From: Clostridiales bacterium
GTDB taxonomy: Bacteria; Bacillota; Clostridia; Christensenellales; CAG-314
DNA: 64,000 bases
Assembly: GCA_004558105.1 (NCBI GenBank)
Contig: SFEB01000004.1
Span: 5,120-69,119 of the forward strand
Direction of reading: 5' to 3'
This document shows, piece after piece, positions 13,033 to 36,081 of the stretch. A program made the position numbers and the translations under genes. Position 1 is the first letter of the stretch. Each line of letters starts with the position of its first letter. Below the pieces are notes generated by a model. The model did not search any database and had not been told where the DNA came from. It was given only the letters and a program-made list of their open reading frames with translations.

Positions 13033-13737
13033 ATGAAAAAAACCATTATAGCCATTGGCGGCGGAGAAATCAAAACAAAGCAAACTCTCGACATAGACCG
13101 TTTCGTAGTGGACTACGTCAAACAACGCATACCTGCGGACAAACGCCCTTACGGGTTGTTTCTCGGTACGGCAAGTCACGACAGTATGCCATACTTTAAC
13201 AGTTACCGAAAAACCTACACTTCCGTTCTGGACGTCAAAGCCGACTGCGCCCTTTCGGTGTACGGCGAGATGGATTTCGAACACATCAGAGAAAAATTTT
13301 TTAAAGCCGATTTTCTTTACGTCGGCGGCGGCGACACCAAGTTTTTGATGGAAAAGTGGCGCGAAAGCGGTATCTACGACCTCGTAGCGGACGCTTACGA
13401 CCGCGGCGTAGTCATCGTCGGTCTTTCCGCCGGCGCAATCTGCTGGTTCAAGGATATTTACAGCGATTACGACATTATCGGCGGACAAAGCGGCGAATAT
13501 AAACTGCTCAAAGGGTTCGGTTGGATAGACAACCTCGCCTGCCCTCACTACGACGACAGAACCGAGTTTGACCAAACCTTTTTAAATAGCGAACAAACGA
13601 GCGCATACGGGTTGGAAAACAACGCCGCTCTTGTCTTTGAGGACCTCGTCCCCGTAAAGACCGTGTCCGCCGGCGGAAACGTTTATCGCCTCGTAAAAGA
13701 AAACGGAAAACTCGTCAAAACGGTATTGAAACTATGA
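13033..13737 (+). CDS. Peptidase S51 (dipeptidase E-like) family protein
   Basis: 234 aa with IIAIGGGEI, YVGGGDT and the nucleophile context GLSAGA. Confidence 0.7.
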   Translation: MKKTIIAIGGGEIKTKQTLDIDRFVVDYVKQRIPADKRPYGLFLGTASHDSMPYFNSYRKTYTSVLDVKADCALSVYGEMDFEHIREKFFKADFLYVGGGDTKFLMEKWRESGIYDLVADAYDRGVVIVGLSAGAICWFKDIYSDYDIIGGQSGEYKLLKGFGWIDNLACPHYDDRTEFDQTFLNSEQTSAYGLENNAALVFEDLVPVKTVSAGGNVYRLVKENGKLVKTVLKL

Positions 13738-14669
13738 CCTTCACTTTTTTAGACTCTATGCTGGCCGTGGCGGGAATGTTAATTTTCGCCGTTCCCGGCT
13801 TTTTATTCATCAAAACGAAACTTCTCGACGAAACGAGTATTCCCAACTTTGCAAAACTGCTGCTGTACGTTTGTCAGCCCTGCCTGAGCCTGTACAGTTT
13901 TAATCAGGCGACCAAAGCGAATATCAACCCCGTCAACGTCGGTATCGTGTTTTTGTTGGCGCTGGTCATGCAATGTCTGATTATTTTTCTCGTCTGGCTG
14001 GCGTTAAGAAAAAGGTTTGACGACGTAAACTACCGCGTGACCTGCGTTGCTGGCGCTTTCGGAAACGTCGGTTTTCTCGGCGTGCCGTTGCTGGAAAAAC
14101 TTCTGCCCGACTCCCCCGGTATCGTGGCGTATTCCGCCGCTTTTATCGTGGCTCTCAACCTGTTGGCATGGACGCTCGGTTGTTTCGTCCTGACAAAAGA
14201 TAAAAAATATTTCAGCGCAAAAAAACTGTTTCTGAACCCACCCATGCTTACTTTAATCGTGGCGTTGCCACTGTTTTTGACGGGGACGCAACTGCCTGCC
14301 GGCGCCGTTGATATCGAAGGCATCGTCACCACCCTCGGCAAAATGACCACGCCGCTTTGCATGATTATACTCGGTATGCGACTTGCTACCGTTTCGCCCA
14401 AAGATTTGTTCTGCGACTGGAAAGTGTATCTGGCTACGGCAATCAAACTTATCGTCCTGCCTTTAATCACATTTACGGTCATGCTCGCGCTCCCGTTGTC
14501 CGACGAAATAAAGGTCGCAACCTTTATACTCAGTTGTTGCCCGTCCGCCACGGTTGTGCTTAATCTGTCGGAAATGTTCGGCAGCGGTCAGAAGGTCTCG
14601 GCAAACATCATACTGCTCAGCACGATTTGTTGTATAGTCACTATTCCTTTAATGTTACTGTTGGTATAA
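13734..14669 (+). CDS. AEC (auxin efflux carrier) family transporter
   Basis: 311-aa polytopic membrane protein with the 5+5 TM layout typical of the AEC/malate permease family. Its start overlaps the upstream stop. Confidence 0.7.
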   Translation: MTFTFLDSMLAVAGMLIFAVPGFLFIKTKLLDETSIPNFAKLLLYVCQPCLSLYSFNQATKANINPVNVGIVFLLALVMQCLIIFLVWLALRKRFDDVNYRVTCVAGAFGNVGFLGVPLLEKLLPDSPGIVAYSAAFIVALNLLAWTLGCFVLTKDKKYFSAKKLFLNPPMLTLIVALPLFLTGTQLPAGAVDIEGIVTTLGKMTTPLCMIILGMRLATVSPKDLFCDWKVYLATAIKLIVLPLITFTVMLALPLSDEIKVATFILSCCPSATVVLNLSEMFGSGQKVSANIILLSTICCIVTIPLMLLLV

Positions 14670-14721
14670 CCCCGTTTATACTCGTTTATCGGATAAAACC
14701 GTCTTTCACGGAGGATAAATA

Positions 14722-15159
14722 ATGAAAATAAGAGTAAAAAAACTTTATCCCGACGCAAAACTGCCTACGTACTCCACCCCCTACGCCGCAGGCGCAGACC
14801 TTTACGCTTATACCGAAAAGGACGTGACGATAGAACCGCATACGACGGTTTTTGTCACCACGGGACTGTCGGTGGAAATTCCCGACGGGTACGCAGGGCT
14901 GGTTTACGCCCGTAGCGGACTGGCAAGCAAAAACGACCTTGCGCCCGCCAACAAAGTAGGCGTCATCGACAGCGACTATCGCGGCGAGACCTTCGTCGCT
15001 CTTCACAATCACGGCAATTATCCTCAGACGATATCCAACGGTCAACGTATCGCTCAACTGGTTATCACGCCCGTAATCGCGGCAGAGTTCGTCGAAGCGG
15101 AAGAACTTTCCCGTACGGAACGCGGCGAAGGCGGTTTCGGAAGCAGCGGCAAGTTTTAA
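14722..15159 (+). CDS. dut: dUTP diphosphatase
   Basis: 145 aa. Trimeric dUTPase motifs AGADL, GVIDSDYRGE and C-terminal RGEGGFGSSG. Confidence 0.9.
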   Translation: MKIRVKKLYPDAKLPTYSTPYAAGADLYAYTEKDVTIEPHTTVFVTTGLSVEIPDGYAGLVYARSGLASKNDLAPANKVGVIDSDYRGETFVALHNHGNYPQTISNGQRIAQLVITPVIAAEFVEAEELSRTERGEGGFGSSGKF

Positions 15160-15317
15160 AACGAAAGTCACTTAAAGCGGTTTACGGAAACAAAATAATA
15201 GCGGAAATCTTATTAAAATATATTGCAAATTCTTAACTATTTTGTTAAACTAAGTAGTGGAGTAATTTGCAATTTTTTATTTTTGCTCCATTTTTAGAAA
15301 AATTAAAGGGAGAACTT

Positions 15318-16979
15318 ATGTTTAACGGAGAAATTGTCCTTGCCGTTGCGGAACTACTTGCCGGACTCGGCGCGTTCCTGCTCGGCTTTAACCTCTTGTC
15401 CGGTTCGATGACCAAACTTGCCGGCGGCGGATTGAAAAACATGTTGGGTAAAACTGTTCATTCGCCCTTGAAAGGCGTCGGCATAGGCGCTTTATCTACG
15501 GCAGTGATGCAATCGAGCAGTATTACCACCGTTATGTTCGTCGGTTTCGTCAATGCGGGTATTATGACTCTTCCGCAGGCTACGGCGTTGATAATGGGCA
15601 GCAACATCGGCTCAACGATAACGGCTCAGATCGCCGCTTTGCAGAGTATCGATATCATGAGTTATCTCATGCTCCTCGCCTGCGTGGGCGCGTTTATGAA
15701 TCTGTTTGCCAAACGCGAAAAATTTAAGACGCTCGGCCTCGCTCTCGGCGGTCTCGGACTTATTTTCGTAGGCATGTGGATGATGGAAGGCAGTATGGAA
15801 ATCTTTAAAGACGACCCGTTTTTCCAGACAGCTATCACCAGCGTTACCAACCCCGTCCTGCTCCTTCTTATCGGTGCTGCCGTAACCGCCCTCTTCCAGA
15901 GCAGCGGCGCGGTCACCAGTATCGTCATCTCTATCGCCGCGGCAGGAATCACCATCGGCAACGGCGGCAACAGCGTACTTTTCGTCATCATGGGCAGTAA
16001 CATAGGTACCTGCGTAACGGCACTTTTAAGCGCCATAGGCGCAACCGCAAACGGCAAGCGCGCAAGTATTATCCACCTGATGTTCAACACCTTCGGCGCA
16101 GTTCTTTTTACCGTTGTGTTGCTTATATGGAAAAACTTTTTCGAAGTTACTTTCCAACGCTGGTTTACCTTACCGGCGACGCAAATCGCAATGTTCCACA
16201 CCTTCTTCAACGTTATATGCACCGCTATATTCCTGCCGTTTATCAACGTTTTCGTAAAAATTTCGGAATGTGTGATAAAGGACAAGAAACCCGCTTCGTC
16301 CGTGGCGGAAAGCGACTTTATGGACGAAAGATTGCTCAATACCCCCACCGTCGCTCTCGCCCAACTCTCCAACGAAGCAGTAATCGTTGCCCGCAAGGCG
16401 TTTGAAAACCTTTCGACGTCATTCGAAAAATTCCTTGAACTAGACGACTCGACTGCCAACGATATCGGCGACAAAACGATAGAAGTGGAACAAACTATCG
16501 GCGCAATGGTCAATTACCTGGTAAAAATCAGTTCCCGCAACATAGGTCAGCACGAAGAAGAACTGATCAACGTAATGCACCACAACCTCAACGATATTCT
16601 GCGCGTCAACGCTTTTGCCGACAACTTCGTCAAGTACACAGCAAAATCCATAAAGGAAGACCTGACCTATTCCGACAACGTAAAAGCGCAACTGCGCGAT
16701 ATGTTCGACAATATCACCAAACTTTTCGAACTCAGCGTCACCGTCTTAAACGACAGCGAACACGTCCAGATGGATAAAGTGGACGAATACGAAGATAAAA
16801 TCGACCGCAACAAAAACCAACTTATCGACGGACATATCGAACGCCTCAATCAGGGCATCTGCCAACCGGCTTGCAGCGGCATCTTTATCAATCTTGTCAG
16901 CAACCTCGAACGTGCAGGCGACCACCTGACCTACATAGCCCACTCTTTCGACGAAATAAATGGCAAAGTAAACGCCTGA
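15318..16979 (+). CDS. Na/Pi cotransporter family protein with PhoU-like C-terminal domain
   Basis: Na/Pi-II related membrane repeats (QSSSITT, QSSGAVTS) followed by a helical PhoU-like domain. The start is moved to the ATG at 15318 (MFNGEIV), preceded by AAAGGGAGAA. Confidence 0.8.
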   Translation: MFNGEIVLAVAELLAGLGAFLLGFNLLSGSMTKLAGGGLKNMLGKTVHSPLKGVGIGALSTAVMQSSSITTVMFVGFVNAGIMTLPQATALIMGSNIGSTITAQIAALQSIDIMSYLMLLACVGAFMNLFAKREKFKTLGLALGGLGLIFVGMWMMEGSMEIFKDDPFFQTAITSVTNPVLLLLIGAAVTALFQSSGAVTSIVISIAAAGITIGNGGNSVLFVIMGSNIGTCVTALLSAIGATANGKRASIIHLMFNTFGAVLFTVVLLIWKNFFEVTFQRWFTLPATQIAMFHTFFNVICTAIFLPFINVFVKISECVIKDKKPASSVAESDFMDERLLNTPTVALAQLSNEAVIVARKAFENLSTSFEKFLELDDSTANDIGDKTIEVEQTIGAMVNYLVKISSRNIGQHEEELINVMHHNLNDILRVNAFADNFVKYTAKSIKEDLTYSDNVKAQLRDMFDNITKLFELSVTVLNDSEHVQMDKVDEYEDKIDRNKNQLIDGHIERLNQGICQPACSGIFINLVSNLERAGDHLTYIAHSFDEINGKVNA

Positions 16980-17068
16980 TTTCGTATTGCGCCGTTGACG
17001 GTTTTCAGACCGTATTTTGTCCTCATTAACCCTCTTTCGCATAAAATTACATTGTGAAAATACTAAGT

Positions 17069-17212
17069 GGTGGAAAAGTTGTCCACGAAAACCAAAACAC
17101 CGATTATTTGATTTTTTATGGGTTTTTCAACCCGAAACAGGGCGTTTTTGGGGGTGTTTATCCACTTATCCACCAACTTATCCACATTTTTCCACCGACA
17201 CGGTGGGGATAA
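17069..17212. promoter_or_regulatory. DnaA-box cluster (seven boxes, five of them within 55 bp)
   Basis: Box TTATCCACT at 17158-17166. Box TTATCCACC at 17166-17174. Box TTATCCACA (perfect) at 17178-17186. Box TTTTCCACC at 17188-17196. Inverted TGGGGATAA at 17204-17212. Weaker boxes at 17069-17077 and 17079-17087. Consensus used: TTATCCACA. Confidence 0.75.
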
Positions 17213-17292
17213 AAATGATAAAAATTCATCAAATACTTGACGGTTTTTGCATAATATAAAAAATACGAAAATAACGACAGGAGAAGAAGTTT

Positions 17293-17550
17293 ATGCAACA
17301 TTTTTCTTTCAGTCCGCACGGAGTGTGCGCTGTGAAAATCGATTTCGATATCGACGACGGAACGGTAAAAAATATCGTTTTTAAGGGCGGCTGCGACGGT
17401 AACCACAAGGCTATTGCCCGCCTTGCCGAAGGCGTCCCCGCTAAAAAAGTTGCCGAATTACTCAAAGGCAATACCTGCGGTTTTCGCAATACGAGTTGCG
17501 CAGACCAGTTGGCAATCGGTATTAACCTGGCTCTCGAACAAATGGAATAA
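17293..17550 (+). CDS. TSCPD-domain small protein (TIGR03905-like)
   Basis: 85 aa with four Cys: GVCAVKIDF...GGCDGNHKAI...GNTCGFRNTSCADQL. Confidence 0.7.
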   Translation: MQHFSFSPHGVCAVKIDFDIDDGTVKNIVFKGGCDGNHKAIARLAEGVPAKKVAELLKGNTCGFRNTSCADQLAIGINLALEQME

Positions 17551-17573
17551 CCCGAACGAAAACGCACGTACCG

Positions 17574-18422
17574 ATGAAAATTCAACATGAACACGTGGGG
17601 CACAGACAGCGATTGAGAGACCGATACGAAAAAGGCGGCATCACCGCCCTGTTCGACTACGAAATTCTGGAAATGCTGTTGGCTCAGATTATTTTATACG
17701 CCGATACTCAACCCACCGCCAAAAGACTGCTTAAAAAGTTCGGTACCGTCAGACACGTTCTGACGGCAAGCCTGGAAGAATTGGAAAGCGTGGACGGCGT
17801 AGGAAAACGAACGGCGTCGATACTCAACTTTTTCGGCCAGACCTTCGACTATATCCGCAGCGACCGGATAGACGCACATTCTTCCTATTCCAGGGTGGAA
17901 ATTGCCAACGCCTGCTACGAAGCGTTCAAAGGCAAAAACTACGAATGTATGGTATTTTTGTGTTACGACCGCAATATGGAGTTATGCCACTCGGGCGAAA
18001 GCACCGAGTATCGCAGAGGCTACACCTTTTCGCCGACGATCGAAGAAATTATCGCCGAAGCGAAAGCACATCACGCAAAGTATATCTATTTTGCTCACAA
18101 CCACCCGAAGGGAAGCATCGTCCAACCGTCGAACGTCGACCTTAAGTTTATCGAAAAATCCGTTCGCGTTGCCATGGAAAACGGAATAATCGTGCTTGAC
18201 CACACGATTACCTGCGAACCCGATACTTACAGCGTATACTACGCCAACACTCTGGGCAACGTCGCCCTTAAAGTTATGGCAGAACTGGGCGGCGACAACC
18301 CGTATAACGACAACTTCGTCAAGGAAAACTTTTTCAACGATTCAAATTGGGACAGCGGATACTTCAACAAAACCGAAATGGAACGGCTTATAATGAATAA
18401 ATTCGACCCCATCCTTACCTGA
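17574..18422 (+). CDS. radC: RadC-like JAB-domain protein
   Basis: 282 aa. N-terminal GHRQRLRDR plus a helix-hairpin-helix (LESVDGVGKRTA). JAB motif AHNHPKG. It has a longer C-terminal tail than typical RadC. Confidence 0.8.
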   Translation: MKIQHEHVGHRQRLRDRYEKGGITALFDYEILEMLLAQIILYADTQPTAKRLLKKFGTVRHVLTASLEELESVDGVGKRTASILNFFGQTFDYIRSDRIDAHSSYSRVEIANACYEAFKGKNYECMVFLCYDRNMELCHSGESTEYRRGYTFSPTIEEIIAEAKAHHAKYIYFAHNHPKGSIVQPSNVDLKFIEKSVRVAMENGIIVLDHTITCEPDTYSVYYANTLGNVALKVMAELGGDNPYNDNFVKENFFNDSNWDSGYFNKTEMERLIMNKFDPILT

Positions 18423-18476
18423 AAATAAAATAAACGACAAAATTTATTGCCGTCGGAAACCAACAGAGGTATAACT

Positions 18477-19811
18477 ATGCAAAAAGAATACTATTACAGA
18501 CTAAAAGACGAAATGATGGAAACGTTAATCAAAACGCTTTCCATAGATACCGTCCGTACCGCACCCGCAGACGGGGCGCCTTTCGGTAAAGGCGTGGCGG
18601 ATTGTCTCGCTTTCGTCCTGGACGTAGCGAAAAAAATGGGTTTTGAAACCTACAACTGCGACAATTACGCCGGTCACGTAGAATTCGGCGACGGTGAAGA
18701 AATCGTCGGCGTTCTCGGACATCTCGACGTCGTTCCCGTCACCGACGGTTGGACGACTCCTCCCTTTACCCCGACTATCCGCGACGGGAAACTGTACGCA
18801 CGCGGAGCAAGCGACGACAAAGGACCTATGATTGCCTGCCTGTACGCGTTAAAAGCATTAAAGGACAGCGGTTTTAAACCGTCAAAACGCATTCGCCTGA
18901 TCTTCGGTTGCGACGAAGAAACCAATATGGAATGCGTAAAATATTACAAAACAAAAATGCCCTTACCCGACGTCGCTTTCAGCCCCGACGGCGATTTTCC
19001 CGTCATCAACATCGAAAAAGGTATCTATGCCTTCGACCTCGACGTGGGAGAATTGCCCAAAGAAATCAAGCAAATGCACGCAGGTACCCGCGTTAACGTC
19101 GTTCCCGACCTCTGCGAAGTTACTCTTTGCGGTTGCGTAGACGAAAACCTTATCAAAAAGAGCGGTATCGAATACGAAAAGAACGAGGACGGGTGCTACC
19201 GTCTCACCACGCGTGGCGTTTCCTGCCACGGCGCAAGTCCGTATCTCGGCAAAAACGCAACGTGGCAGATGTTCGAAGGCTTGTCGGTAATTTTCCCCGA
19301 CAGTGAAACTTTGCGTTTCGTTGCAGACAAAATGTGCAAGGACGTGTACGGCGAAAAATGGGGTTTTGCTCTCCATGACCAACCGAGCGGAAAAATCACT
19401 CACAATATAGGCGTCGTCGACCTGGTGGACGGCCATTTGAAAATAAAACTCGACGTACGCTTTCCCGTTACCTTTAAAAGCGATTTCGTCCGCGAGTGCC
19501 TGCTGTCCAACAGCATTGCAAGTTTAAAAATCGACCAGAGCCATATAAAGGAACCGCTCTTCGTCAAAGCCGACGAACCGTTGGTCGTGTCTTTGCTTAA
19601 AATCTACAACGATTTTACCGGCAGTAACGCGCTTCCCCTCGCCATCGGCGGAGGAACGTATTCGAGAGTTCTGCCCAAATGCGTGGCGTTCGGCCCCGCC
19701 TTCCCGGGAGAAATGACGGCTATACACGAAAAAGACGAATGGATTTCTCTGGAAAACCTCGACAAAATGGCGTTGATGTACGCTCAGGCAATAGAAGAAT
19801 TGGCAAAATAA
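18477..19811 (+). CDS. pepV: M20 family dipeptidase (PepV/Sapep-like)
   Basis: Motifs GHLDVVP, RGASDDKGP, GCDEE. The start is moved to the ATG at 18477 (MQKEYYY), downstream of an AGAGG SD. Confidence 0.8.
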   Translation: MQKEYYYRLKDEMMETLIKTLSIDTVRTAPADGAPFGKGVADCLAFVLDVAKKMGFETYNCDNYAGHVEFGDGEEIVGVLGHLDVVPVTDGWTTPPFTPTIRDGKLYARGASDDKGPMIACLYALKALKDSGFKPSKRIRLIFGCDEETNMECVKYYKTKMPLPDVAFSPDGDFPVINIEKGIYAFDLDVGELPKEIKQMHAGTRVNVVPDLCEVTLCGCVDENLIKKSGIEYEKNEDGCYRLTTRGVSCHGASPYLGKNATWQMFEGLSVIFPDSETLRFVADKMCKDVYGEKWGFALHDQPSGKITHNIGVVDLVDGHLKIKLDVRFPVTFKSDFVRECLLSNSIASLKIDQSHIKEPLFVKADEPLVVSLLKIYNDFTGSNALPLAIGGGTYSRVLPKCVAFGPAFPGEMTAIHEKDEWISLENLDKMALMYAQAIEELAK

Positions 19812-19858
19812 AAGCAACCGTATCTCATCAAAACTACTTTTTACGTTGATAAAAAATT

Positions 19859-20467
19859 ATGGATAAATACTTATATTACGTAGACGACAAACCGTATCTC
19901 AATATCACCAACAAATGCAGCAATCACTGCGACTTTTGTATACGCAACGACCGCAAAACGATGGACGGTCAGAACTTGTGGCTGAAAAATCAGACTCCGA
20001 CCGCCGAAGAAATTATCGAACAAGTAAAGACGGAAAAAAACCTTTCGCAGGAATTCGTCTTTTGCGGTTTCGGCGAACCGACGGAAAACCTGTCCGCACT
20101 TCTCTCCGTCGCACGCTTTATCAAGGCAAACGGGGGCACGATAAGACTTAACACCAACGGACAGAGCGACCTTATAAACCGCCGTTCCACGGCAAAAGAA
20201 ATAAGCGAGGTCTGCGACGTTATCAGCATCAGCCTTAACGACTGCACGCCTGCCGATTATCAAAAACTTTGCCATTGCGAATTCGGCGAAGACGCTTTTC
20301 CCGCTTTGCTCAAGTTCGCCAAAGAATGCGACGAAAACGGCGCAAAGGTTATTTTGTCCGTCGTTGACGTTATCGGCGAAGAAAAAGTCGAAAAGTGCCG
20401 CGAAATCTGCAACCGACTCGGACTGACGTTAAGGGTACGCACTTATATCCCCGTCACTCAACACTGA
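19859..20467 (+). CDS. TatD-associated radical SAM protein
   Basis: 202 aa with the CxxxCxxC cluster motif (CSNHCDFC). It lies immediately upstream of tatD, as in the TIGR04038 family. Confidence 0.75.
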   Translation: MDKYLYYVDDKPYLNITNKCSNHCDFCIRNDRKTMDGQNLWLKNQTPTAEEIIEQVKTEKNLSQEFVFCGFGEPTENLSALLSVARFIKANGGTIRLNTNGQSDLINRRSTAKEISEVCDVISISLNDCTPADYQKLCHCEFGEDAFPALLKFAKECDENGAKVILSVVDVIGEEKVEKCREICNRLGLTLRVRTYIPVTQH

Positions 20468-20469
20468 TT

Positions 20470-21228
20470 ATGGCAAAATACGTCGACTGTCACTTACATT
20501 TAGAAGACCATGCGTTTGACGGCATGCGAGAAGCGATTATCGCCGCATTCAAGGCCGACGACGTCGATTTCGTTATCGATTGCGGCAGCGACCTGAACCT
20601 GGCGGAAAAATACGACGATATTTACGCCGTGGTGGGTTGCCACCCTCACGAGGCAAAAGATTTCGACGACAAAGCGGCGGAATTTTTTACCGCCGTCTCT
20701 TCTCACGAAAAAGTGGTGGGCATAGGTGAAATCGGTCTGGACTATCACTACGATCTTTCGCCCCGTTCCGTTCAGAAAGACGTTTTCGAAAAGCAAATCG
20801 TTCTTGCCGACAGCCTTAACCTGCCCATTGTAATTCACACCCGTGAGGCGTGGAAAGACACTCTGGACGTTCTTGCCGCCAACAAAAAACGCCTCAACAA
20901 CGGCGTACTGTTTCATTGTTTTAACGGCAGTAAAGAAACGGCGAAAATACTCGTTGATAAATACGACGCCTATTTCTCGCTCGGCGGCGCGGTAACCTTT
21001 AAAAATTTCAACGGATTCGACGCCATCGAAGTTCTTCCGCGCGACAGAATTCTGACCGAGACCGACGCACCGTACATGACGCCCGTGCCTTTCAGGGGAA
21101 AAACCAACGAGCCGAAATACGTTGCGCTGACCGTCGCCGCACTATGCGGACGATTCGGTTGGGATAAAGACGAGTTTACCCGTCAGGTCAAAGAAAACAC
21201 CCTGAGACTGTTTGGAATAAAAAGGTAA
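20470..21228 (+). CDS. tatD: TatD family metal-dependent hydrolase/DNase
   Basis: Motifs DCHLHL, GEIGLDYHY, IHTREA. The start is moved to the ATG at 20470 (MAKYVDCHLHL). Confidence 0.85.
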   Translation: MAKYVDCHLHLEDHAFDGMREAIIAAFKADDVDFVIDCGSDLNLAEKYDDIYAVVGCHPHEAKDFDDKAAEFFTAVSSHEKVVGIGEIGLDYHYDLSPRSVQKDVFEKQIVLADSLNLPIVIHTREAWKDTLDVLAANKKRLNNGVLFHCFNGSKETAKILVDKYDAYFSLGGAVTFKNFNGFDAIEVLPRDRILTETDAPYMTPVPFRGKTNEPKYVALTVAALCGRFGWDKDEFTRQVKENTLRLFGIKR

Positions 21229-26682: not shown

Positions 26683-27597
26683 ATGACAAAAATCAACGGA
26701 AGATTTATTGCGCTTTTACTTATTGTCGCGACTGTTTTGGCTATGTTTTCGGGATGCGACTTGATTTTCGGTCAGAAGCCTGACGGTACGGTTAATTATG
26801 ACGAAAAAATGGATGCCTCCACGGGAAAGTGGCTACTTATGGACGAGGAGGATACATACTTCGTTTTTGACGGTTCGGAGGGCGTTATGACCTTCAGCTA
26901 CTACGAGGACGACGCGCTGAAATATCAGGGCGGCTTCAGATCTATATATAGAAGCTCCGACAATGCAAAGACTCCCTTGACCTTCATTCTCACAAGAAGC
27001 GACAAGGAGAATGAGGACTGGATCAGCTGCTACGCCGAGGGCGTTGACGATGGCTTCACACAGTTCAGCATCATCTACGCCGAGGAGGACCTGGGCTTCA
27101 CAGACGGCACGGTCTATACTCACGTTTACCGCATAGGCGAGATGCCATACAAATTCGGAACCTACGTGCTGGAGGGCAATTCTCATAAGTCCTACAGTAA
27201 GGACATCTATAACGACGGACAGTACCGTCTGCCCGAGGGCACCTACACCGCAGAGAGCAGCCAGAGCTTATTTGTACTGCCCCTGATAAATCAGAGCTTC
27301 TCGCTCTTCATCTACACAAACGGCGAGACAGTCATTGAGGGAATCTTCAATATTTCCGAGGACAGAAAAACGCTCTATCTCTATATCGAAAACGACATTT
27401 ATGAGAAGGTAAGAAAGGCCGACAAGGATAACTACGACACCACCGTCAGCAACTACTATCCGCCCGATTTCTATCTCCGCGGCAGCTTCGATAACAATGA
27501 CAACAGCATCGTTATAAACGGGCTCTATCATCATCCATATAGCCCCACCGAAATTCAGGACTCGGTCTGGGTATTTGACACATACACAAGACAATAA
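26683..27597 (+). CDS. Lipoprotein of unknown function (compositionally atypical gene)
   Basis: 304 aa. Signal peptide plus lipobox (LAMFSGC). SD AAAGGAGA. Codon usage differs from the neighbours (GAG/AAG/AGA/AGC rich, fewer CpG). Confidence 0.75.
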   Translation: MTKINGRFIALLLIVATVLAMFSGCDLIFGQKPDGTVNYDEKMDASTGKWLLMDEEDTYFVFDGSEGVMTFSYYEDDALKYQGGFRSIYRSSDNAKTPLTFILTRSDKENEDWISCYAEGVDDGFTQFSIIYAEEDLGFTDGTVYTHVYRIGEMPYKFGTYVLEGNSHKSYSKDIYNDGQYRLPEGTYTAESSQSLFVLPLINQSFSLFIYTNGETVIEGIFNISEDRKTLYLYIENDIYEKVRKADKDNYDTTVSNYYPPDFYLRGSFDNNDNSIVINGLYHHPYSPTEIQDSVWVFDTYTRQ

Positions 27598-28030
27598 GAA
27601 CTCATTACACATATTGGAGAAAGCAAAGAATAACCAAACAGGCTTAAGGTTTCAGCCGAATAATTAAAATTGAAACCGCTTTGGTAAAAACTCATCCGTT
27701 TTTGACCTAACTCATCCGCTTTCAATTTTGTATCCTTTTCATAGCTCTTTCACAAACAAACACGATTATTCGATACCGTCGGCATTGAATTTTCGTGTTT
27801 ATTTTTTTAAACGAAAACGCCCGTCGCAACTTTAAAAGGATACCGAAACACGCTTGAAACAGCCGTGCCAAACGGAGATCTGAAAATTGCGGAGGAAAAT
27901 CGTTCAAAAACGGCGTAAAAGCGCGGAACTTACGCGGCGAGGGCTTGCCCTCGCCGCGTCTTTTATCCGCTTGACTAAGACTTAAAACCGAAAAAAAGAA
28001 AAACACGAAAAAGATTTTTGTAGATTTATA

Positions 28031-28059
28031 TTGCATTTAACGGCGATTTTTGTTATAAT
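28031..28059 (+). promoter_or_regulatory. Sigma-A type promoter of the M18 aminopeptidase gene
   Basis: TTGCAT, a 17-nt spacer ending in TGT, then TATAAT. Confidence 0.55.
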
Positions 28060-28136
28060 ATATCCTGATAAACGTGAAGTTTGGCTTTACGTCCGTCGCT
28101 TATCGATAAAAATGAAAAAACATAGGAGATATTATT

Positions 28137-29534
28137 ATGGAAGAAAAAACTCAAGGTCAATTACTCAAAGAACAACTTTGCTGGAATATTCCCAACATTG
28201 CCAAAGACAACAAAGACGAAGTCGCAAAAGCACAGGAATTTTGCGAGGGTTACAAAGATTTTCTCAATAAAGGGAAAACCGAACGCGAATGCGTAGAGTA
28301 CTCGGTGGACTTGCTCGTAAAAGCCGGTTACAAACCCTTTGACAGAAATAAAAAATACAAGGCGGGCGACAAGGTTTATTTCATCAACCGCGAAAAAGCA
28401 GTTATCGCAACGACTTTCGGTCAACGTCCTCTGACGGAAGGCTCCCGTCTCAACTTCGCACATATCGACGCACCCCGTCTCGACCTTAAACCCAACCCCC
28501 TGTACGAAAAGTCCGATATTTCTTATCTCAAAACGCACTACTACGGCGGAATAAGAAAATATCAATGGACCTGTATTCCTCTCGCTATCCACGGCGTCGT
28601 CTGCAAGGCAGACGGAACCAAAGTTAAGGTCTGCATAGGCGAAGAACCCGGCGACCCCGTGTTCGTTATCACCGATTTATTGCCTCACCTCGCAGCAGAA
28701 CAGGGTAAACGTACCCTCAACGACGGAATAAAAGGCGAAGAACTCAACATCATTACGGGTTGCCTGCCCTTTGACGAAAAAGATATCAAAGAACCCGTCA
28801 AACTCATGACTCTCAAACTTCTCAACGAAAAATACGGTATCGTCGAAAAAGACTTCGTCCGCGCGGAAATCGAAATCGTCCCCGCAACGAAAGCAACCGA
28901 CGTCGGTCTGGATCGCGGATTTGTCGGCGCGGCAGGTCAGGACGACAGAGTGTGCGGCTACACCGCTCTCATGGCGGAAATCGACACCAAAACCCCCGTC
29001 TACACCACCATCACCGCTTTGGTTGACAAAGAAGAAATCGGTTCGGTAGGCAATACCGGTCTCAACAGCGACTTTATTCTTCACTACATCGAATTCCTCG
29101 CGCAAAACGCAGGCGTCGATTACAAAGACGTATGCGCAAACGCTCTCTGCATGAGCAGTGACGTAAACGCGGCTTTCGATCCCACCTTCCCCTCCGTACA
29201 TGAACCGATGAACGCAAGTTACGCAGGTAAAGGTTGCGTCATCACCAAATACACCGGCTCCCGCGGAAAGAGCGGCAGCAACGACGCAAGCGCGGAAGTT
29301 ATGCAAAAGGTCATCGCAATGATGGATGAAGAAAAAGTTTATTGGCAAATCGGCGAACTCGGCGCCATCGACGTGGGCGGCGGCGGCACGGTTGCGGCGT
29401 ACGTAGCGCATATGAATATCGACGTCGTCGACGTAGGCGTACCTATCCTCAGCATGCACTCGCCCTTCGAGTTGGCGGCAAAAGTCGACGTTTACAACGC
29501 TTACAGAGCTTATCTCGCTTTCTTTAAACACTAA
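28137..29534 (+). CDS. M18 family aminopeptidase
   Basis: 465 aa. The overall pattern matches clostridial aminopeptidase 1 / aspartyl aminopeptidase family (HIDAPRLDLKP, GQDDRVCGY, DKEEIGS, SMHSP). Confidence 0.8.
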   Translation: MEEKTQGQLLKEQLCWNIPNIAKDNKDEVAKAQEFCEGYKDFLNKGKTERECVEYSVDLLVKAGYKPFDRNKKYKAGDKVYFINREKAVIATTFGQRPLTEGSRLNFAHIDAPRLDLKPNPLYEKSDISYLKTHYYGGIRKYQWTCIPLAIHGVVCKADGTKVKVCIGEEPGDPVFVITDLLPHLAAEQGKRTLNDGIKGEELNIITGCLPFDEKDIKEPVKLMTLKLLNEKYGIVEKDFVRAEIEIVPATKATDVGLDRGFVGAAGQDDRVCGYTALMAEIDTKTPVYTTITALVDKEEIGSVGNTGLNSDFILHYIEFLAQNAGVDYKDVCANALCMSSDVNAAFDPTFPSVHEPMNASYAGKGCVITKYTGSRGKSGSNDASAEVMQKVIAMMDEEKVYWQIGELGAIDVGGGGTVAAYVAHMNIDVVDVGVPILSMHSPFELAAKVDVYNAYRAYLAFFKH

Positions 29535-29543
29535 TCAAATTTA

Positions 29544-29572
29544 AAACGCACCCGCACGGGTGCGTTTTTTTT
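29544..29572. terminator. Rho-independent terminator (bidirectional context)
   Basis: 8-bp stem ACGCACCC / GGGTGCGT with a GCAC loop, followed by eight T. It lies between the convergent aminopeptidase and uppP genes. Confidence 0.8.
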
Positions 29573-29616
29573 AACCGAAAAAACCTCTTTCCTTTTTTCA
29601 AAGTAAACCGCTCGCT

Positions 29617-30381
29617 TTACCATGCCGTCAGAATACTCAGCAGTAAAGGTAATATCATGTACAGCGCAAAAGGACGTAAGGATTTGTTTTTAAGATAACC
29701 GATAAACAGTCTCAGACAAACCGTCCCTACGATATAGGCGACCAGCATACCGAGCAATACGGGTAACATGTTAGAAACGACAGGCGCGTCGGTCACTACC
29801 GCCTTGTACCCTTTTACAACGGTTCCGGCAAGGATAACGGGCAAAGACAACAAAAAGGCGAATTCCGCGCTTTCCTCTTTTTTTACGCCGAAAAAGTTCA
29901 ATACCGACAGTATCGAGCCGCTACGGGACAAACCCGGTATCACGGCTATACCCTGAGCAATACCCGCCGCCCAGACGTGTGTATACGGGGGAGCGTAAAG
30001 CGGACGGACGTTCTTGCCTTTATCGGAAAAAAACAGTAATACCGCCGTCGCAAGAAATCCCACGGGCAATATCCACGAGTACCACTCTTCGGGCAAAAAC
30101 AATTCTGCTGCCGCCGCAAGAATAAATGTCGGCACGCTTGCCATAATCACCATTCCCAACCTCATATCGGTAAACGGATGAAAAATCATTTTTCGCACGG
30201 GTCCCCACATAACCGTAACGACGGCAAAAAGCGTGCCGAGGTGCAGCAAGAGGTTAAAAAACACGTCCACTTCGCACCCGAGCAGTTTTTCCGCCAAAAA
30301 AAGATGACCGCTGCTGCTGACGGGTAAAAATTCCGTCAGTCCTTGCAGTACACCTAAAAATATTCCCTGCCAGACGGACAA
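29617..30381 (-). CDS. uppP: Undecaprenyl-diphosphate phosphatase
   Basis: 254 aa. BacA/UppP signature LQGLTEFLPVSSSGHL and PGLSRSG. Confidence 0.9.
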   Translation of the reverse strand: MSVWQGIFLGVLQGLTEFLPVSSSGHLFLAEKLLGCEVDVFFNLLLHLGTLFAVVTVMWGPVRKMIFHPFTDMRLGMVIMASVPTFILAAAAELFLPEEWYSWILPVGFLATAVLLFFSDKGKNVRPLYAPPYTHVWAAGIAQGIAVIPGLSRSGSILSVLNFFGVKKEESAEFAFLLSLPVILAGTVVKGYKAVVTDAPVVSNMLPVLLGMLVAYIVGTVCLRLFIGYLKNKSLRPFALYMILPLLLSILTAW

Positions 30382-30516
30382 AAAATCATCTCCTTAGTTT
30401 ACAAATTCTTAAAGGTAATGTATAATGATTTCGTATGGTTTTGCGAACACTGTCAATCGGTCGTTTCGCTTAACCGTAAAAAAGTCTAAAATAGTATATG
30501 GAGATATTTCGTTAAT

Positions 30517-31611
30517 ATGAAACTCGGAGTCGTAGGTTTGCCCAACGTAGGCAAAAGCACTTTGTTTAACGCCATCACACATGCAGGCGCACAGATAGCC
30601 AACTACCCCTTTTGCACCATCGAACCCAACGTGGGCGTGGTTGCCGTTCCCGACGAACGGTTGGATAAACTGGCGGCGCTGTACGACAGCAAAAAAATCA
30701 CGCCCGCCTTCGTAGAGTTCGTCGACATTGCCGGGTTGGTCAAAGGCGCAAGCCACGGCGAAGGTCTCGGAAACAAGTTTTTGAGCCATATCAGAGAGGT
30801 TGACGCCATCGTCCACGTCGTCCGTTGCTTTATCGACAGCAACGTCACGCACGTAGAAAACAGCGTAAACCCCGCCCGCGACGTGGAAATCATCAATCTC
30901 GAACTTATTTTAGCCGACATCGACACCGTAACCAAAGCCGTGGACAGGGCTAAAACCGCGGCAAAGGGCGACAAAAAGTATCTGTTGGACGTCGACGTTT
31001 TAACCCGTCTGTTAAATCACCTGACCGACGGTAAGTCGGCGAGAAATTTTTCCGCTTCCGACGAGGAAAAGGAAATTATCTCTAACCTCTTCCTTTTGTC
31101 CGCAAAACCCGTAATCTACGCCGCCAACATTTCCGAAAGCGACCTCGGTAAAAACGAACGTGACCTTCCTCTCGTTAAGGAAGTGGAAAAAATCGCCGAA
31201 GCCGAAGGCAGTCAGGTTCTCGTCATCTGCGCAAAAGTCGAAGAAGAACTCTCCGCGTTGCCGCCCGAAGAACAGGAAATGTTCCTTGCCGAATACGGCA
31301 TCACCGAAAGCGGCTTAAACCGCATGATTAAAAAATGTTACGCCCTGCTCGGTCTTATCAGTTATCTGACCGCGGGTGAAAAAGAAACCCGCGCCTGGAC
31401 GATAAAAGAAGGCACCAAAGCCCCTCAGGCGGCGGGAAAAATTCACACCGATTTTGAAAAAGGCTTTATCCGCGCCGAAATCGTTCCTTACGACGTGCTG
31501 TTGGAGTGCGGAAACTTCAACAACGCCAAAGAAAAAGGAAAGGTACGCAGCGAAGGCAAAGACTACGTCGTTAAAGACGGCGACGTCGTTCTGTTCAGGT
31601 TCAACGTTTAA
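30517..31611 (+). CDS. ychF: Redox-regulated ATPase YchF
   Basis: 364 aa. G1 motif GLPNVGKSTLFNA and the C-terminal TGS-like domain (GFIRAEIV...). Confidence 0.9.
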   Translation: MKLGVVGLPNVGKSTLFNAITHAGAQIANYPFCTIEPNVGVVAVPDERLDKLAALYDSKKITPAFVEFVDIAGLVKGASHGEGLGNKFLSHIREVDAIVHVVRCFIDSNVTHVENSVNPARDVEIINLELILADIDTVTKAVDRAKTAAKGDKKYLLDVDVLTRLLNHLTDGKSARNFSASDEEKEIISNLFLLSAKPVIYAANISESDLGKNERDLPLVKEVEKIAEAEGSQVLVICAKVEEELSALPPEEQEMFLAEYGITESGLNRMIKKCYALLGLISYLTAGEKETRAWTIKEGTKAPQAAGKIHTDFEKGFIRAEIVPYDVLLECGNFNNAKEKGKVRSEGKDYVVKDGDVVLFRFNV

Positions 31612-31624
31612 ATTCAGGTAAAAA

Positions 31625-32419
31625 ATGAAATTCGTCAACAAATACAGCGGAAGCAAAGGCAATCTTACCGTCGTCCGCGAAGGCGGCAGAGCGGTTTTAA
31701 TCGATTGCGGCGGCGGTTCGGGAAAGATTTTTCCCGCCATCAAGTCATGCGGACTGAGTCCGTCGGACGTTGACGCCGTTCTCGTCACGCATGAACATTC
31801 CGACCATATCGGCGGAATGGAGACTTTGCTTGCCGCAAATCCGCAGATAAAAGTTTACGTACACGCCAAAGGTTACGTCGCGTTGGTTGATAAATTCAGG
31901 CAGTACGAAGGAAGAATTATTTCCTTCGATTCTCCGTTCGACGCAGGCGCTTTCCGCGTAGAATACTACCCGTGCAGCCACGATTCCGTTTATTGTTGCG
32001 GCTATAAACTGACCGACGACAAGGGTATGTCGGTTGCGTCGGTTACGGACACGGGCGAAGTCGACGACAAAACTTTATTGGCGTTTTTCAACGGTTGCGA
32101 TACCATTCTGCTCGAAAGCAATCACGACGTAAAAATGCTTACCGAAGGCAACTACACCGCCCAACTTAAAAAACGCATACTCGGCGTCAACGGACACCTG
32201 TCCAACGCCCGTGCGGCTCAAATCGTCTCCCGTCTCCCCGATATCAACGTAAAAAACGTTTTTCTGGGACACCTGAGTCTTGACAACAACACCGAAGAAA
32301 TAGCGTTTGCAGAGTCGATAAACGCCCTTGTTTCACGCGGCGCCGTAGACGGCAGAGATATCTGCGTTTACGTTGCCAGACAGCTGTTCGGAGGAAAAGA
32401 AATCAATGTTAACCGATAA
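31625..32419 (+). CDS. MBL-fold metallo-hydrolase (YycJ/WalJ-like)
   Basis: 264 aa with the HxHxDH motif (THEHSDH). Confidence 0.75.
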   Translation: MKFVNKYSGSKGNLTVVREGGRAVLIDCGGGSGKIFPAIKSCGLSPSDVDAVLVTHEHSDHIGGMETLLAANPQIKVYVHAKGYVALVDKFRQYEGRIISFDSPFDAGAFRVEYYPCSHDSVYCCGYKLTDDKGMSVASVTDTGEVDDKTLLAFFNGCDTILLESNHDVKMLTEGNYTAQLKKRILGVNGHLSNARAAQIVSRLPDINVKNVFLGHLSLDNNTEEIAFAESINALVSRGAVDGRDICVYVARQLFGGKEINVNR

Positions 32420-33359
32420 ACTTACCAAGCGTCAGAGTTACAAATTGTTTACCTTTGCGGTGGGCGTCTTTTTGGTACTGCAAGTTATTTTCGTCGCTTT
32501 GAATTCCCTCTCCGGAATGGTGGACGACGACGGCAACTACACGGGGTACTGGTTCTGGATAGTCAACGGCATACTGCAACTTTCGCTTATCGCGGCGGTG
32601 GCGGTTTTTTGCAAAATCTCAAAAGTTAAATATTTCAGCGCAGTCGGCTTGAATAAAAAACCCAAACTTTCCACGCTTTTGCTTTCCGTCGGGCTTGCCG
32701 TGGGGTTATTCTGTTTCGTCTACCCCATACAGACGTGGGTGCTTAAATTGCTGGAAGAACTCGGTTTTTCGGCGAGCAGCAGCGTACCCGTCGACAACGA
32801 TCCGATTACTTTCGTTTTGCTTATCGTAGTCGTCGGTCTTCTCCCCGCTTTTGCGGAAGAACAACTTTTCAGAGGCGCTTTGCTCGGCGGACTTAAAAGT
32901 TTCGGAACAATAAAAGCCTGCCTCGTCTGCGGAGCGCTGTTTGCGCTGTTCCACATGAACCCGGCTCAGACGGTACATCAGTTTATAATGGGATTTGCGT
33001 TGGCGTATATCGCTTTACGCGCGGACAACCTGTACCCGTCAATGCTCGTCCATTTATTCAACAACATTATCGTTATCGTTCTGGCAGTTACCTTAGGCGA
33101 CGCGGTCGATCTTTTCGTCGAAAAATACTGGTACGCCTTTTTGCTTGTCGGCGCCGCAGTTTGCGCGGCGTGCGCTTACGCGTTTATAAAACTCACTCCG
33201 TCAAACGAACGGAACGTTGAGGCAGAAAAAACTTCGCCCACGGCATCCACTGCCGGCGGCGAAACAACGGAAAAACAAACCACGGGAGACGTGTTGATTC
33301 TCTTTTCCGGAATACTTGCGTGTGCAATTCTCTGGATATCGGGTTTCAACGCAGGCTGA
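32406..33359 (+). CDS. CPBP family intramembrane glutamic endopeptidase
   Basis: Motifs EEQLFRG and FALFH ... HLFNN. The start is moved to the ATG at 32406 (MLTDKL). Confidence 0.75.
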   Translation: MLTDKLTKRQSYKLFTFAVGVFLVLQVIFVALNSLSGMVDDDGNYTGYWFWIVNGILQLSLIAAVAVFCKISKVKYFSAVGLNKKPKLSTLLLSVGLAVGLFCFVYPIQTWVLKLLEELGFSASSSVPVDNDPITFVLLIVVVGLLPAFAEEQLFRGALLGGLKSFGTIKACLVCGALFALFHMNPAQTVHQFIMGFALAYIALRADNLYPSMLVHLFNNIIVIVLAVTLGDAVDLFVEKYWYAFLLVGAAVCAACAYAFIKLTPSNERNVEAEKTSPTASTAGGETTEKQTTGDVLILFSGILACAILWISGFNAG

Positions 33360-33360
33360 A

Positions 33361-33831
33361 ATGTTAAAGGTAAAAATAGTTTGCGTAGGCAAGATAAAAG
33401 AAGATTTTTTTGAAAAGGCGTTGGCGGAATACGGCAAACGTCTTTCTCGTTTCTGCGCCTTTAAAATAGAAGAAATCGCAGAATCCCGTCTCAACGACGA
33501 AACGGCGACAGATATCGCCCGCGCGCTGGAAGAAGAAGGCAAAAGCATTCTTAAAAAAACAGACGGGTTGGCGGTTTTATTGGACAGGCAGGGCGTCGAA
33601 GTATCCTCCTGCGACGTGGCGAAACTGTTGAAATCTTCCGCCGACGTCAAAGGCGGTATTACTTTTATCGTCGGCAGTAGCCACGGCGTCAGTCATTCCG
33701 TTTTTCAACGCGCGGACAAAGTGATTTCGTTCGGAAAAATCACCTTCCCACACCAACTGTTCAGAGTCGTTCTGGCAGAACAGATTTATCGGGGATTCAC
33801 GATAATAAACGGCTCCGCTTATCACAAGTAA
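33361..33831 (+). CDS. rlmH: 23S rRNA (pseudouridine1915-N3)-methyltransferase RlmH
   Basis: SPOUT-family pattern (MLKVKIVCVGKIKE ... FIVGSSHG ... FPHQLFRVVLAEQIYR). The start is moved to the ATG at 33361. Confidence 0.85.
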   Translation: MLKVKIVCVGKIKEDFFEKALAEYGKRLSRFCAFKIEEIAESRLNDETATDIARALEEEGKSILKKTDGLAVLLDRQGVEVSSCDVAKLLKSSADVKGGITFIVGSSHGVSHSVFQRADKVISFGKITFPHQLFRVVLAEQIYRGFTIINGSAYHK

Positions 33832-33950
33832 AACGAGTGCCGCCTCTAACCGCTCCAGTCGGTCGATAATCGTTTTAAACGGTTTTCAATCCGTCACTTT
33901 TTCCTTTTTTTCGCATATAATATCAAGACGAACAAAAAGGGAGAAACGGA

Positions 33951-34886
33951 GTGTTTAAATATTTTGATTTATTGAAAGAAATCGACGAATTCGAAAGACG
34001 CGGCGTAGAAGTCGGCAGCATTGGCAACAGTACCCTCGGTTTTGACACGCCTTATATCTTTATCGGCGACAAATCCAAAAACTGCATCGTCGTGACGGGA
34101 GCGATACACGCGCGTGAACACATTACCGCTTTGCTGGTGGTCAACCAGGCAAAACATCTGCTGAAAAACGCCGATTTAACCCTCCTGGGCGGTATCTACT
34201 TCATTCCCATGGTCAACGTTGACGGGGTACGGCTCTGCCAGGAAGGCGTGGGTTTCCTGACCGACAAACAACTCAAAAAAAACCTGATAAAAATCAACGG
34301 CGGCACGGACTTTTCGCTGTGGAAAGCCAATATAGCGGGCGTCGACCTCAACGTCAATTTCGACGCGCGGTGGGGACAGGGAAAAAGCAACGTCTTTTAC
34401 AAAGCCCCTGCCAACTACGTCGGCAAAAAACCCAACAGCGAAGTCGAAACGAAAAATCTCGTTCGTTTCACCCGTACCGTCAATCCGTTATCCACCGTCA
34501 GTTATCATTGCAAAGGCGAAGTCATTTTCTGGCGGTTTTTCCAAAAAGACAAACGCACCTTGTGGCAGCACTACTGCCTTGCGAAAAGTCTTTCCCAGGC
34601 TACGGGGTATCGCCTTATCGCGACCGAAGCAGGCAGTTGCGGCGGTTACAAGGACTGGTGTATTGACCGACTGGGCATTCCGGCGTTTACCGTAGAAGTG
34701 GGCAGCGACAAGTTTACCCACCCCTACCCTTACGACCAGTTCGAAGATATTTACAACAAAAACATAGACGTTCCGAGACGGTTGCTCAACACCGTCTGCC
34801 GCGAAAAAGAGAGGGCAAGTCAGAATGGATCAAAAGATAAAGATGATGAAACGGGCCTTATTCCAAGCGAAAAAAGCTTCCGCTGA
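33951..34886 (+). CDS. M14 family zinc carboxypeptidase (gamma-D-glutamyl-diamino-acid peptidase-like)
   Basis: 311 aa, GTG start. Zinc motif HAREHIT. The 3' end overlaps tadA by 62 nt. Confidence 0.7.
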   Translation: MFKYFDLLKEIDEFERRGVEVGSIGNSTLGFDTPYIFIGDKSKNCIVVTGAIHAREHITALLVVNQAKHLLKNADLTLLGGIYFIPMVNVDGVRLCQEGVGFLTDKQLKKNLIKINGGTDFSLWKANIAGVDLNVNFDARWGQGKSNVFYKAPANYVGKKPNSEVETKNLVRFTRTVNPLSTVSYHCKGEVIFWRFFQKDKRTLWQHYCLAKSLSQATGYRLIATEAGSCGGYKDWCIDRLGIPAFTVEVGSDKFTHPYPYDQFEDIYNKNIDVPRRLLNTVCREKERASQNGSKDKDDETGLIPSEKSFR

Positions 34887-35274
34887 GGATGAAGTCCCTA
34901 TCGGCGCCGTAATAGTCAAAGACGGCAAAGTCGTTTCCGTCGGACGAAACGAGCGCGACAAAAAACAAATCGCCACCAAACACGCCGAAATCGTCGCCAT
35001 CGAATCTGCATGCAGAAAACTCAAAAGCTGGCGTCTCAACGGTTGCGAACTGTACGTCACTTTGGAGCCGTGCGCGATGTGTCTGGGCGCATGTTTTAAC
35101 GCCCGCCTGGATAAAGTCTATTTTGGCGCCTACGACCCCCGAGGCGGCGCCTGCGGAAGCGTAATCGACCTGTCGATTGTCAACCAATTAAACCACAATC
35201 TAGAGGTCGAAGGCGGCATTCTCGCCGACGACTGCGCAAAACTGCTGAAAGATTTTTTCGCCGCCAAAAGATAG
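34825..35274 (+). CDS. tadA: tRNA adenosine(34) deaminase
   Basis: 149 aa. CDA-fold zinc motifs HAEIVAI and PCAMC. Confidence 0.9.
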   Translation: MDQKIKMMKRALFQAKKASAEDEVPIGAVIVKDGKVVSVGRNERDKKQIATKHAEIVAIESACRKLKSWRLNGCELYVTLEPCAMCLGACFNARLDKVYFGAYDPRGGACGSVIDLSIVNQLNHNLEVEGGILADDCAKLLKDFFAAKR

Positions 35275-35588
35275 TTTTTCGTTTTAACCTTTTTGTAACC
35301 GCTCTCACTTGCCGGTCGGCAGAAATCAACGGACGTTAAAAACCCTAACTCGCCTGACACAAAACGAATTCACAGGAAAACCAACGGAAAAGCCTTGATT
35401 TTTGCGTCAGAACAAACGCCGTAAAACTTTTAATAATAACGTTAATAGCGTCATAAAAAACTTATTCAAGATAAAACCTTTATTCGCATATATCCGTATA
35501 AAACGACACAATATAACCCTACATCCGAAAAACACAACAAAAGAGTATTCAAAAACGTAATATCGTATAAGATCTTATATCGGTAAAG

Positions 35589-36065: not shown

Positions 36066-36081
36066 TGTTTCACGTGAAACA
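36066..36081. other. parS: parS site 1 (ParB binding site)
   Basis: TGTTTCACGTGAAACA. Perfect 16-bp palindrome matching the Firmicute parS consensus TGTTNCACGTGAAACA. Confidence 0.85.

Follow-up and report, generated by a model that had tools for sequence, protein, structure and literature searches.

A conserved DnaA-box cluster outside oriC lies upstream of a TSCPD/RadC-like operon in uncultured Christensenellales-like Clostridia and is a probable cis-regulatory site

The intergenic DNA upstream of a TSCPD / RadC-like / PepV / radical SAM / TatD operon was found to carry a compact group of DnaA boxes, which is probably a DnaA-box cluster outside oriC acting as a cis-regulatory DnaA-binding site of the operon promoter. 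The cluster lies 24.5 kb from oriC in the 64,000-nucleotide stretch of DNA that was analyzed (the window). Sequence comparison gives it good support as a conserved DnaA-box element, unremarkable in principle; that DnaA occupies the cluster, where the promoter lies and that transcription is affected are inferred. A sequence-only reading of the same DNA had proposed either a DnaA-controlled promoter or titration site, or an alternative or true replication origin. As far as sequence can show, the first branch was supported, with conserved islands of boxes, the same operon downstream and a double box with a 3-bp gap, and the origin branch was not supported, given the nucleotide skew and the lack of DnaA-trios at the cluster.

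Boxes were scored against the DnaA-box consensus TTATNCACA and are presented in Table 1 together with the surrounding features. When 16700-17600 was read again, all box positions and sequences that had been given for the cluster proved correct. The upstream boxes form a palindromic (back-to-back) pair, GGTGGAAAA-G-TTGTCCACG, at 17069-17087, and boxes 2 and 3 form a same-orientation double box with a 3-bp gap. Box clustering is far above chance. Where 9.55 boxes with no more than one mismatch were expected, the window contained 26, and 17001-17500 was its sole 500-bp bin with three or more of them. For a chance baseline, the window was simulated 1000 times with a first-order Markov model: four boxes of this quality were present inside 60 bp, where the simulation maximum was two (in 8.5% of runs), and the seven boxes with at most two mismatches inside 150 bp were reached in 0/1000 simulations. 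The AT-rich stretch described earlier as following the boxes was borne out, since 17205-17292 is 72.7% A+T against 53% for the window; a narrower section, 17213-17279, reaches 77.6% A+T, which fits a promoter and 5' UTR equally as well as an unwinding element.

Table 1. DnaA boxes, flanking elements, operon genes and oriC, with positions numbered in the window
Feature	Position	Strand	Remarks
Na/Pi symporter with PhoU domain	15267-16979	+	upstream neighbour
Terminator-like hairpin and T-run, ACGGTTTTCAGACCGT then ATTTTG	16998-17013	+	3' of Na/Pi symporter gene; consensus match only
Upstream GCATAAWAT copy, GCATAAAAT	17039-17047	+	31-42 bp 5' of palindromic pair in 4/4 lineages
Palindromic pair, left box GGTGGAAAA (TTTTCCACC on minus strand)	17069-17077	-	
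Palindromic pair, right box TTGTCCACG	17079-17087	+	
Box 1, TTATCCACT	17158-17166	+	
Box 2, TTATCCACC	17166-17174	+	1-nt overlap (a T) with box 1
Box 3, TTATCCACA	17178-17186	+	perfect consensus match
Cluster core, head-to-tail boxes 1-3	17158-17186	+	AAC between boxes 2 and 3
Box 4, TTTTCCACC	17188-17196	+	2 mismatches; weaker; 1 bp past box 3
Inverted box TGGGGATAA (TTATCCCCA on minus strand)	17204-17212	-	1 mismatch
Conserved AT-rich block, TTTTTGCATAATATAAAAA	17244-17262	+	9/19 columns invariant, mean pairwise identity 0.74
Ribosome-binding site of TSCPD gene, GGAGAAG	17280-17286	+	direct reading; GGAG kept in relatives
TSCPD protein, operon gene 1	17293-17550	+	PF12637 E=5.9e-23; TIGR03905 94.8 bits vs cutoff 67.7
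Divergent RadC-family protein (HhH + JAB)	17574-18422	+	Pfam RadC E=5e-13; below NCBIfam RadC cutoffs
PepV-type M20 dipeptidase	18447-19811	+	
TatD-associated radical SAM protein	19859-20467	+	
TatD-family exonuclease	~20470-21228	+	last operon gene
oriC, divergent dnaA/dnaN spacer	41346-41757		77% A+T, skew switch, box and trio run

The cluster was present in four lineages of uncultured Christensenellales-like Clostridia, which are kin to one another and not independent, and it always stood before the same operon. The lineages were that of the window (with L082 and L083), L081 (RadC 65% identical), L163-165 (40%) and L168-171 (48%). All share a layout of the palindromic pair, an interval of 87-89 bp, TTATCCACTTATCCACM-N3-TTATCCACA, and an AT-rich block with a -10-like sequence. 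In a MAFFT four-way alignment the columns of the pair and the triple box were invariant at 36/48 positions, compared with 48/204 elsewhere in the intergenic region (Fisher p=4.5e-11), a contrast which is somewhat inflated because the alignment was anchored on the boxes. Invariance was highest in the triple box (25/29 columns of 17158-17186, where variation is confined to the 3-nt spacer and the final position of box 2), and in the palindromic pair 11/19 columns were invariant in the four lineages, while the 70-bp spacer between pair and array showed a pairwise identity of 0.44, near saturation. Box 4 kept 6/9 columns, its CCACCG core being retained and the box degenerate in L163 and L168. The inverted box kept 2/9 columns and was absent in L081, L163 and L168; it is probably not a functional part of the cluster.

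Spacing was held along with the boxes. The gap between boxes 2 and 3 was 3 bp in 4/4 lineages, filled by AAC, GAT, GGC or AGT; the pair-to-array distance was 87-89 bp in the four lineages, and the downstream GCATAA lay 89-101 bp from the array. The upstream neighbour varied (a Na/Pi symporter gene on the same strand, or a MaoC or hypothetical gene on the opposite strand) and the downstream operon was constant, with the TSCPD, RadC-like, PepV, radical SAM and TatD order kept in L081 and L168-L171; L163-L165 end after the start of the M20 gene. As judged from these alignments the box cluster is under (purifying) selection.

Neither the boxes nor a radC neighbour was found at any of 159 other TSCPD loci (0/159) from genomes and metagenomes with 47-64% protein identity, and wherever a RadC-like gene follows the TSCPD gene the box cluster is present. 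A box cluster as a general feature of TSCPD genes was rejected, the 159 loci having 0.18 boxes per kb upstream versus 0.27 per kb elsewhere and none having two or more boxes. The more distant RadC-like lineages L172-L175 are without a TSCPD gene and have a RadC-like gene (39% identical) divergent from the PepV / radical SAM / TatD genes. One perfect TTATNCACA box (TTATACACA) lies in the 96-bp spacer between them at L172 5929, L173 2620 and L175 113; the L172-L175 spacers are 96% identical to each other and are therefore uninformative on selection of this single box. A contig near-identical to the window comes from a pig-gut metagenome.

Relatives of the RadC-like protein fall in only 6 protein clusters. 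The five operon genes form a tight unit, with gaps of 23-47 bp between genes. No literature linking DnaA boxes to radC or TIGR03905 was found. The terminator-like hairpin after the Na/Pi symporter gene implies a separate promoter for the operon that follows. In the intergenic region a conserved -10-like sequence is carried by the AT-rich block alone, which is present in 4/4 lineages and lies ~30 nt before the ribosome-binding site; the probable -10 region of the operon promoter, 69 bp after the start of box 3, is CATAAT or CATAATAT inside this block. No conserved -35 was found in the four-lineage intergenic comparison, and a sigma-70 scan gave a sole plus-strand match, TTGACG-16-AAAAAT (9/12), which is not conserved in L081. 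In L163 and L168 there is an extra canonical promoter, TTGACA-17-TACAAT, located 3' of the AT-rich block and more than 110 bp downstream of all boxes; it is missing in the window and L081. Both promoter candidates lie downstream of all boxes, and relative to the putative start site the boxes are ~65-105 bp upstream, which makes direct occlusion unlikely.

Copies of GCATAAWAT were observed on both sides of the box cluster, at 17039-17047 and 17249-17257 in the window and at matching positions in L081, L163 and L168. The pattern CATAnnnT is the -10 pattern of mother-cell sporulation sigma factors. GCATAAWAT fits this pattern, and spoIIGA, sigE and spoIIE are encoded at 22-26 kb of the window; the flanking motifs might belong to another factor. 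No LexA (GAAC-N4-GTTC) or Spo0A boxes were found in 16980-17292, and no Rfam families or tRNAs in the cluster region. Open reading frames over the boxes (17017-17259 and 17054-17212) were rejected as spurious, as the region aligns with indels and without a codon pattern.

The DnaA protein encoded in the window was aligned to E. coli and B. subtilis structures and keeps the box-contacting residues of domain IV (PRQ and GGRDHTT, corresponding to E. coli R399 and D433-H434-T435), so the canonical box should apply. Stringer, Fitzgerald and Wade (2024, PMC11317965) showed by ChIP-seq that E. coli DnaA in vivo binds almost only pairs of boxes 2-3 bp apart, and that the DnaA regulon is compact and concerns nucleotide synthesis, replication and DNA repair. 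Boxes 2 and 3, with the same orientation and a 3-bp separation in 4/4 lineages, conform to this pair rule. They resemble the E. coli double DnaA box of that study (PMC11317965) also in that the spacing is kept while the spacer drifts, and the neighbours of the window element, like the members of the E. coli regulon, relate to DNA and nucleotide metabolism. The window differs from the E. coli double boxes in its overlapping box 1, in box 4 following after 1 bp, in the distal palindromic pair and in belonging to another phylum.

In the mechanism which we propose, ATP-DnaA would bind cooperatively at boxes 2 and 3, which make up the double box, and at the flanking boxes 1 and 4, and DnaA would also occupy the palindromic pair 88 bp upstream. 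The tandem boxes point to the operon, with the same polarity as the oriC box toward its trios, and a DnaA oligomer growing in this direction may arrive, after ~60 bp, at the conserved AT-rich block with its -10-like sequence and there influence the start of transcription. Expression of a DNA/nucleotide-metabolism operon would then track DnaA activity and replication status. In the four lineages the boxes stand at a constant place relative to the putative promoter region of a single operon. For the sign of regulation we lean slightly to activation, by analogy with sda, because the boxes lie upstream of both promoter candidates and TTGACA-17-TACAAT is too distant for occlusion. The sda promoter of B. 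subtilis is activated by DnaA (PMC4447404). It too has a box array upstream of the promoter region, and sda is a gene responding to replication status; unlike at sda, the promoter in the window is putative and the downstream genes are non-homologous.

The closest known counterparts are the DnaA-box clusters of B. subtilis outside oriC, which are oriC-proximal, stand before different genes in different species, regulate some of their neighbours and restrain initiation (PMC3245932). The element of the window is likewise an intergenic cluster of consensus boxes which is not an origin, lies near oriC and is directly upstream of possibly regulated genes, and its position is lineage-specific as in Bacillus species (PMC3245932). 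It differs from the B. subtilis clusters in having the TSCPD/RadC-like operon as neighbour, fewer boxes (4 strong, ~7 in total), a fixed bipartite layout and an uncultured Christensenellales-like Clostridium as host. By these features it is most likely an element of a known kind, a B. subtilis-type DnaA-box cluster outside oriC.

As no better DnaA boxes lie within 24 kb of oriC, some DnaA would be withdrawn from the free pool, and such titration is regarded here as a side effect. The opposite weighting, in which the cluster is primarily a titration or activity-control site that holds or inactivates DnaA near the origin, like E. coli datA or the B. subtilis clusters in their role as negative regulators of initiation, and any effect on the operon is incidental, we consider rather unlikely. 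It would agree with the 24.5-kb distance from oriC, since the B. subtilis clusters typically lie near oriC (PMC3245932), and with boxes that are better than those of oriC itself; the bipartite layout with its fixed 87-89 bp also suggests a defined nucleoprotein complex over a simple operator. A pure sink, however, needs no constant position and orientation to one operon and a -10-like block while the upstream neighbours change, and with only 4-7 boxes its capacity would be small.

It is more doubtful still that Clostridia have in this element a dedicated locus for the control of DnaA activity, as datA and DARS are, or a sensor of replication status that gates a head-on DNA-repair operon. This idea draws on the composite of GCATAAWAT, 31-42 bp, palindromic pair, 87-89 bp, overlapping triple box, ~90-100 bp and GCATAAWAT, which is kept with the lagging-strand operon in at least three lineages. 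To our knowledge, no dedicated DnaA-activity control element of such a kind has been defined for Clostridia, and we know of no datA/DARS-type element in Firmicutes. The likeness to E. coli datA and DARS1/2 is that of non-origin box clusters with a defined geometry, and DARS also mixes oppositely oriented boxes. In the three-box core of DARS, which has a fixed spacing, boxes II and III are neighbours and box I faces the other way (PMC5742627). In the window, unlike in DARS, the triple is all in one orientation and the inverted pair is separate, 87-89 bp away, so the element does not belong to the DARS class.

The 1-nt overlap of boxes 1 and 2 is a spacing without known simultaneous occupancy, and it counts against regulation by DnaA. 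The 29-nt triple-box module, TTATCCACTTATCCAC-N4-TTATCCACA, recurs exactly in two IMG/VR viral contigs, L177 (393-421) and L178 (2516-2544). In L177 it lies inside an array of at least 10 DnaA boxes near a J-domain gene, and in L178 two more boxes come after the module and replication-like ORFs are nearby; these viral arrays may be phage origins or DnaA sinks. The occurrence of the module inside larger viral arrays of canonical DnaA boxes argues that the odd overlap is a recurrent DnaA-binding module.

The same observations enter into a further explanation, that the boxes are operators of a different, lineage-specific DNA-binding protein and match the DnaA box by coincidence, or, in a variant, that they are left over from the origin of a mobile element. 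In its favour, boxes 1 and 2 keep an 8-bp register that is unusual for DnaA, the element has GCATAAWAT motifs on either side, and the 29-nt module is shared with the two viral contigs. We nevertheless hold this explanation to be very improbable: three boxes match the 9-mer consensus at 8-9/9 positions in all lineages, the viral copies within larger canonical arrays point to DnaA, and the genes flanking the element are housekeeping genes in synteny.

The origin of replication is the dnaA/dnaN spacer at ~41.5 kb and not the cluster at 17.2 kb. dnaA (39981-41345, minus strand, 454 aa) is divergent from dnaN (41758-42861), which corrects the sequence-only reading, and with this arrangement the single 412-bp spacer is both the dnaA promoter region and oriC. 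The gene order at the origin is non-canonical, with rpmH, rnpA, yidD, yidC, jag, mnmE, mnmG, rsmG, parA and parB on the plus strand after dnaN. The spacer has, as had been remarked before, a poorer box array than the cluster, its 412 bp containing two boxes with one mismatch and four with two. One of these boxes, TTTTCAACA (41683-41691), is followed after 12 nt by a DnaA-trio-like run, CTACTGTTACTACTACTT (41704-41721, 6 trios), just before dnaN, and 41683-41757 is the genuine box and trio unwinding module of the window. The run closely resembles the trio of C. difficile oriC2, CACCTACTACTATTACTACTATGA (PMC7561715), and the box at 41683 fits the box-spacer-trio rule with looser NTN triplets (PMC8287927); the trio part of the oriC call is based only on this loose rule and the C. 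difficile similarity. A strict scan for unwinding modules (a box, at most 16 nt, then at least three [CT]T[AT] triplets), which also missed the oriC candidate, found no DnaA-trio run after the boxes at 17 kb, and inspection by eye for at least three NTN triplets after boxes 3 and 4 found none.

Cumulative GC skew of the window falls to a minimum at 41-43 kb and then rises. GC skew of the coding strand at third codon positions (GC3 skew) was calculated per gene, as this separates replication from transcription effects. Genes co-oriented with an origin at 41.5 kb had GC3 skews of ~-0.03 (minus strand, left of the origin) and -0.055 (plus strand, right), and head-on genes had -0.375 (plus strand, 13-21 kb), -0.38 (plus strand, 26-35 kb) and -0.364 (the lone minus-strand gene on the right). 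Across the cluster the value was unchanged: the four plus-strand genes to its left (13.0-17.0 kb) averaged ~-0.35, and the five that follow on its right (17.3-21.2 kb) averaged -0.40. An origin at 17 kb predicts leading-strand GC3 skew for 17-35 kb, which was not seen, and the origin reading is therefore unsupported.

The sequence-only reading had also counted gene orientation in the window, finding fewer head-on genes with an origin near 17 kb. The count was reproduced, with 12 head-on genes for an origin at 17.2 kb versus 18 for 41.5 kb, and it is misleading as evidence on the origin because two head-on blocks consist of long-standing lagging-strand genes. These plus-strand blocks, 13033-21228 and 26683-35274, hold 17/35 genes left of oriC, and their GC3 skew of ~-0.38 indicates that they have long been head-on and did not arise by a recent inversion. 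The TSCPD operon has a lagging-strand GC3 skew in L081 and L168 also, which argues that its head-on orientation is conserved.

That the cluster is a second, alternative or former origin, or a displaced half of a bipartite oriC which loops to the dnaA/dnaN spacer, is the least credible explanation, with only a slight chance of being correct: tandem boxes of one orientation followed by ~80 bp of 73-78% A+T, a weak local oriC array, a rearranged dnaA/dnaN region and the gene-orientation switch left of 17 kb (12 versus 18 head-on) would favour it, but there is no skew change at 17.2 kb, where GC3 on both sides (~-0.35 to -0.40) has the lagging-strand value, the cumulative minimum is at 41-43 kb, the trio run follows box 41683 and none of the 17-kb boxes, the operon has lagging-strand skew in L081 and L168 too, and the element travels with the operon and not with dnaA. 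The likeness to the basal unwinding system of oriC (B. subtilis, C. difficile oriC2) is in the same-orientation tandem boxes and the AT-rich DNA which follows; unlike that system, the 17-kb cluster is without DnaA-trios, without a skew switch and not beside dnaA.

For the prediction of origins this case advises caution, as the best box array and a switch in gene orientation need not mark oriC; here the third-position skew and the DnaA-trio put the origin 24 kb from the best box array. If DnaA controls the operon, as the preferred reading of a cis-regulatory site would have it, uncultured gut Clostridia would join E. coli and B. subtilis in having a compact DnaA regulon for DNA/nucleotide metabolism. 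The TIGR03905 TSCPD protein and the divergent RadC, both poorly understood, would then receive a first clue to their function, and the element would be a case from nature of bipartite DnaA binding at fixed spacing.

A low-GC, ORF-poor island at 35.3-37.9 kb was considered as an origin and rejected, since it had no box enrichment and the GC3 skew of cvpA and dnaA, which lie to the right of it, is that of the leading strand. This 2.6-kb island (35275-37866, 33-38% GC, 4-6 kb from oriC) contains seven parS-like palindromes, TGTTTCACGTGAAACA, of which two are perfect (36066 and 36127) and five have 1-2 mismatches (37003, 37065, 37167, 37252 and 37364); the search gave 14 matches, both strands counted, against 0.21 expected. 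Its left part is A/C-rich and its right part T/G-rich, with the switch near 37.15 kb, and parA and parB (49943-51756) lie across oriC from it. A dense non-coding parS array is unusual for Firmicutes. Beside cvpA and dnaA, a cobalamin riboswitch (84 bits) was identified at 38857-39049 on the minus strand, upstream of the gene of a YitT-family membrane protein (37867-38760).
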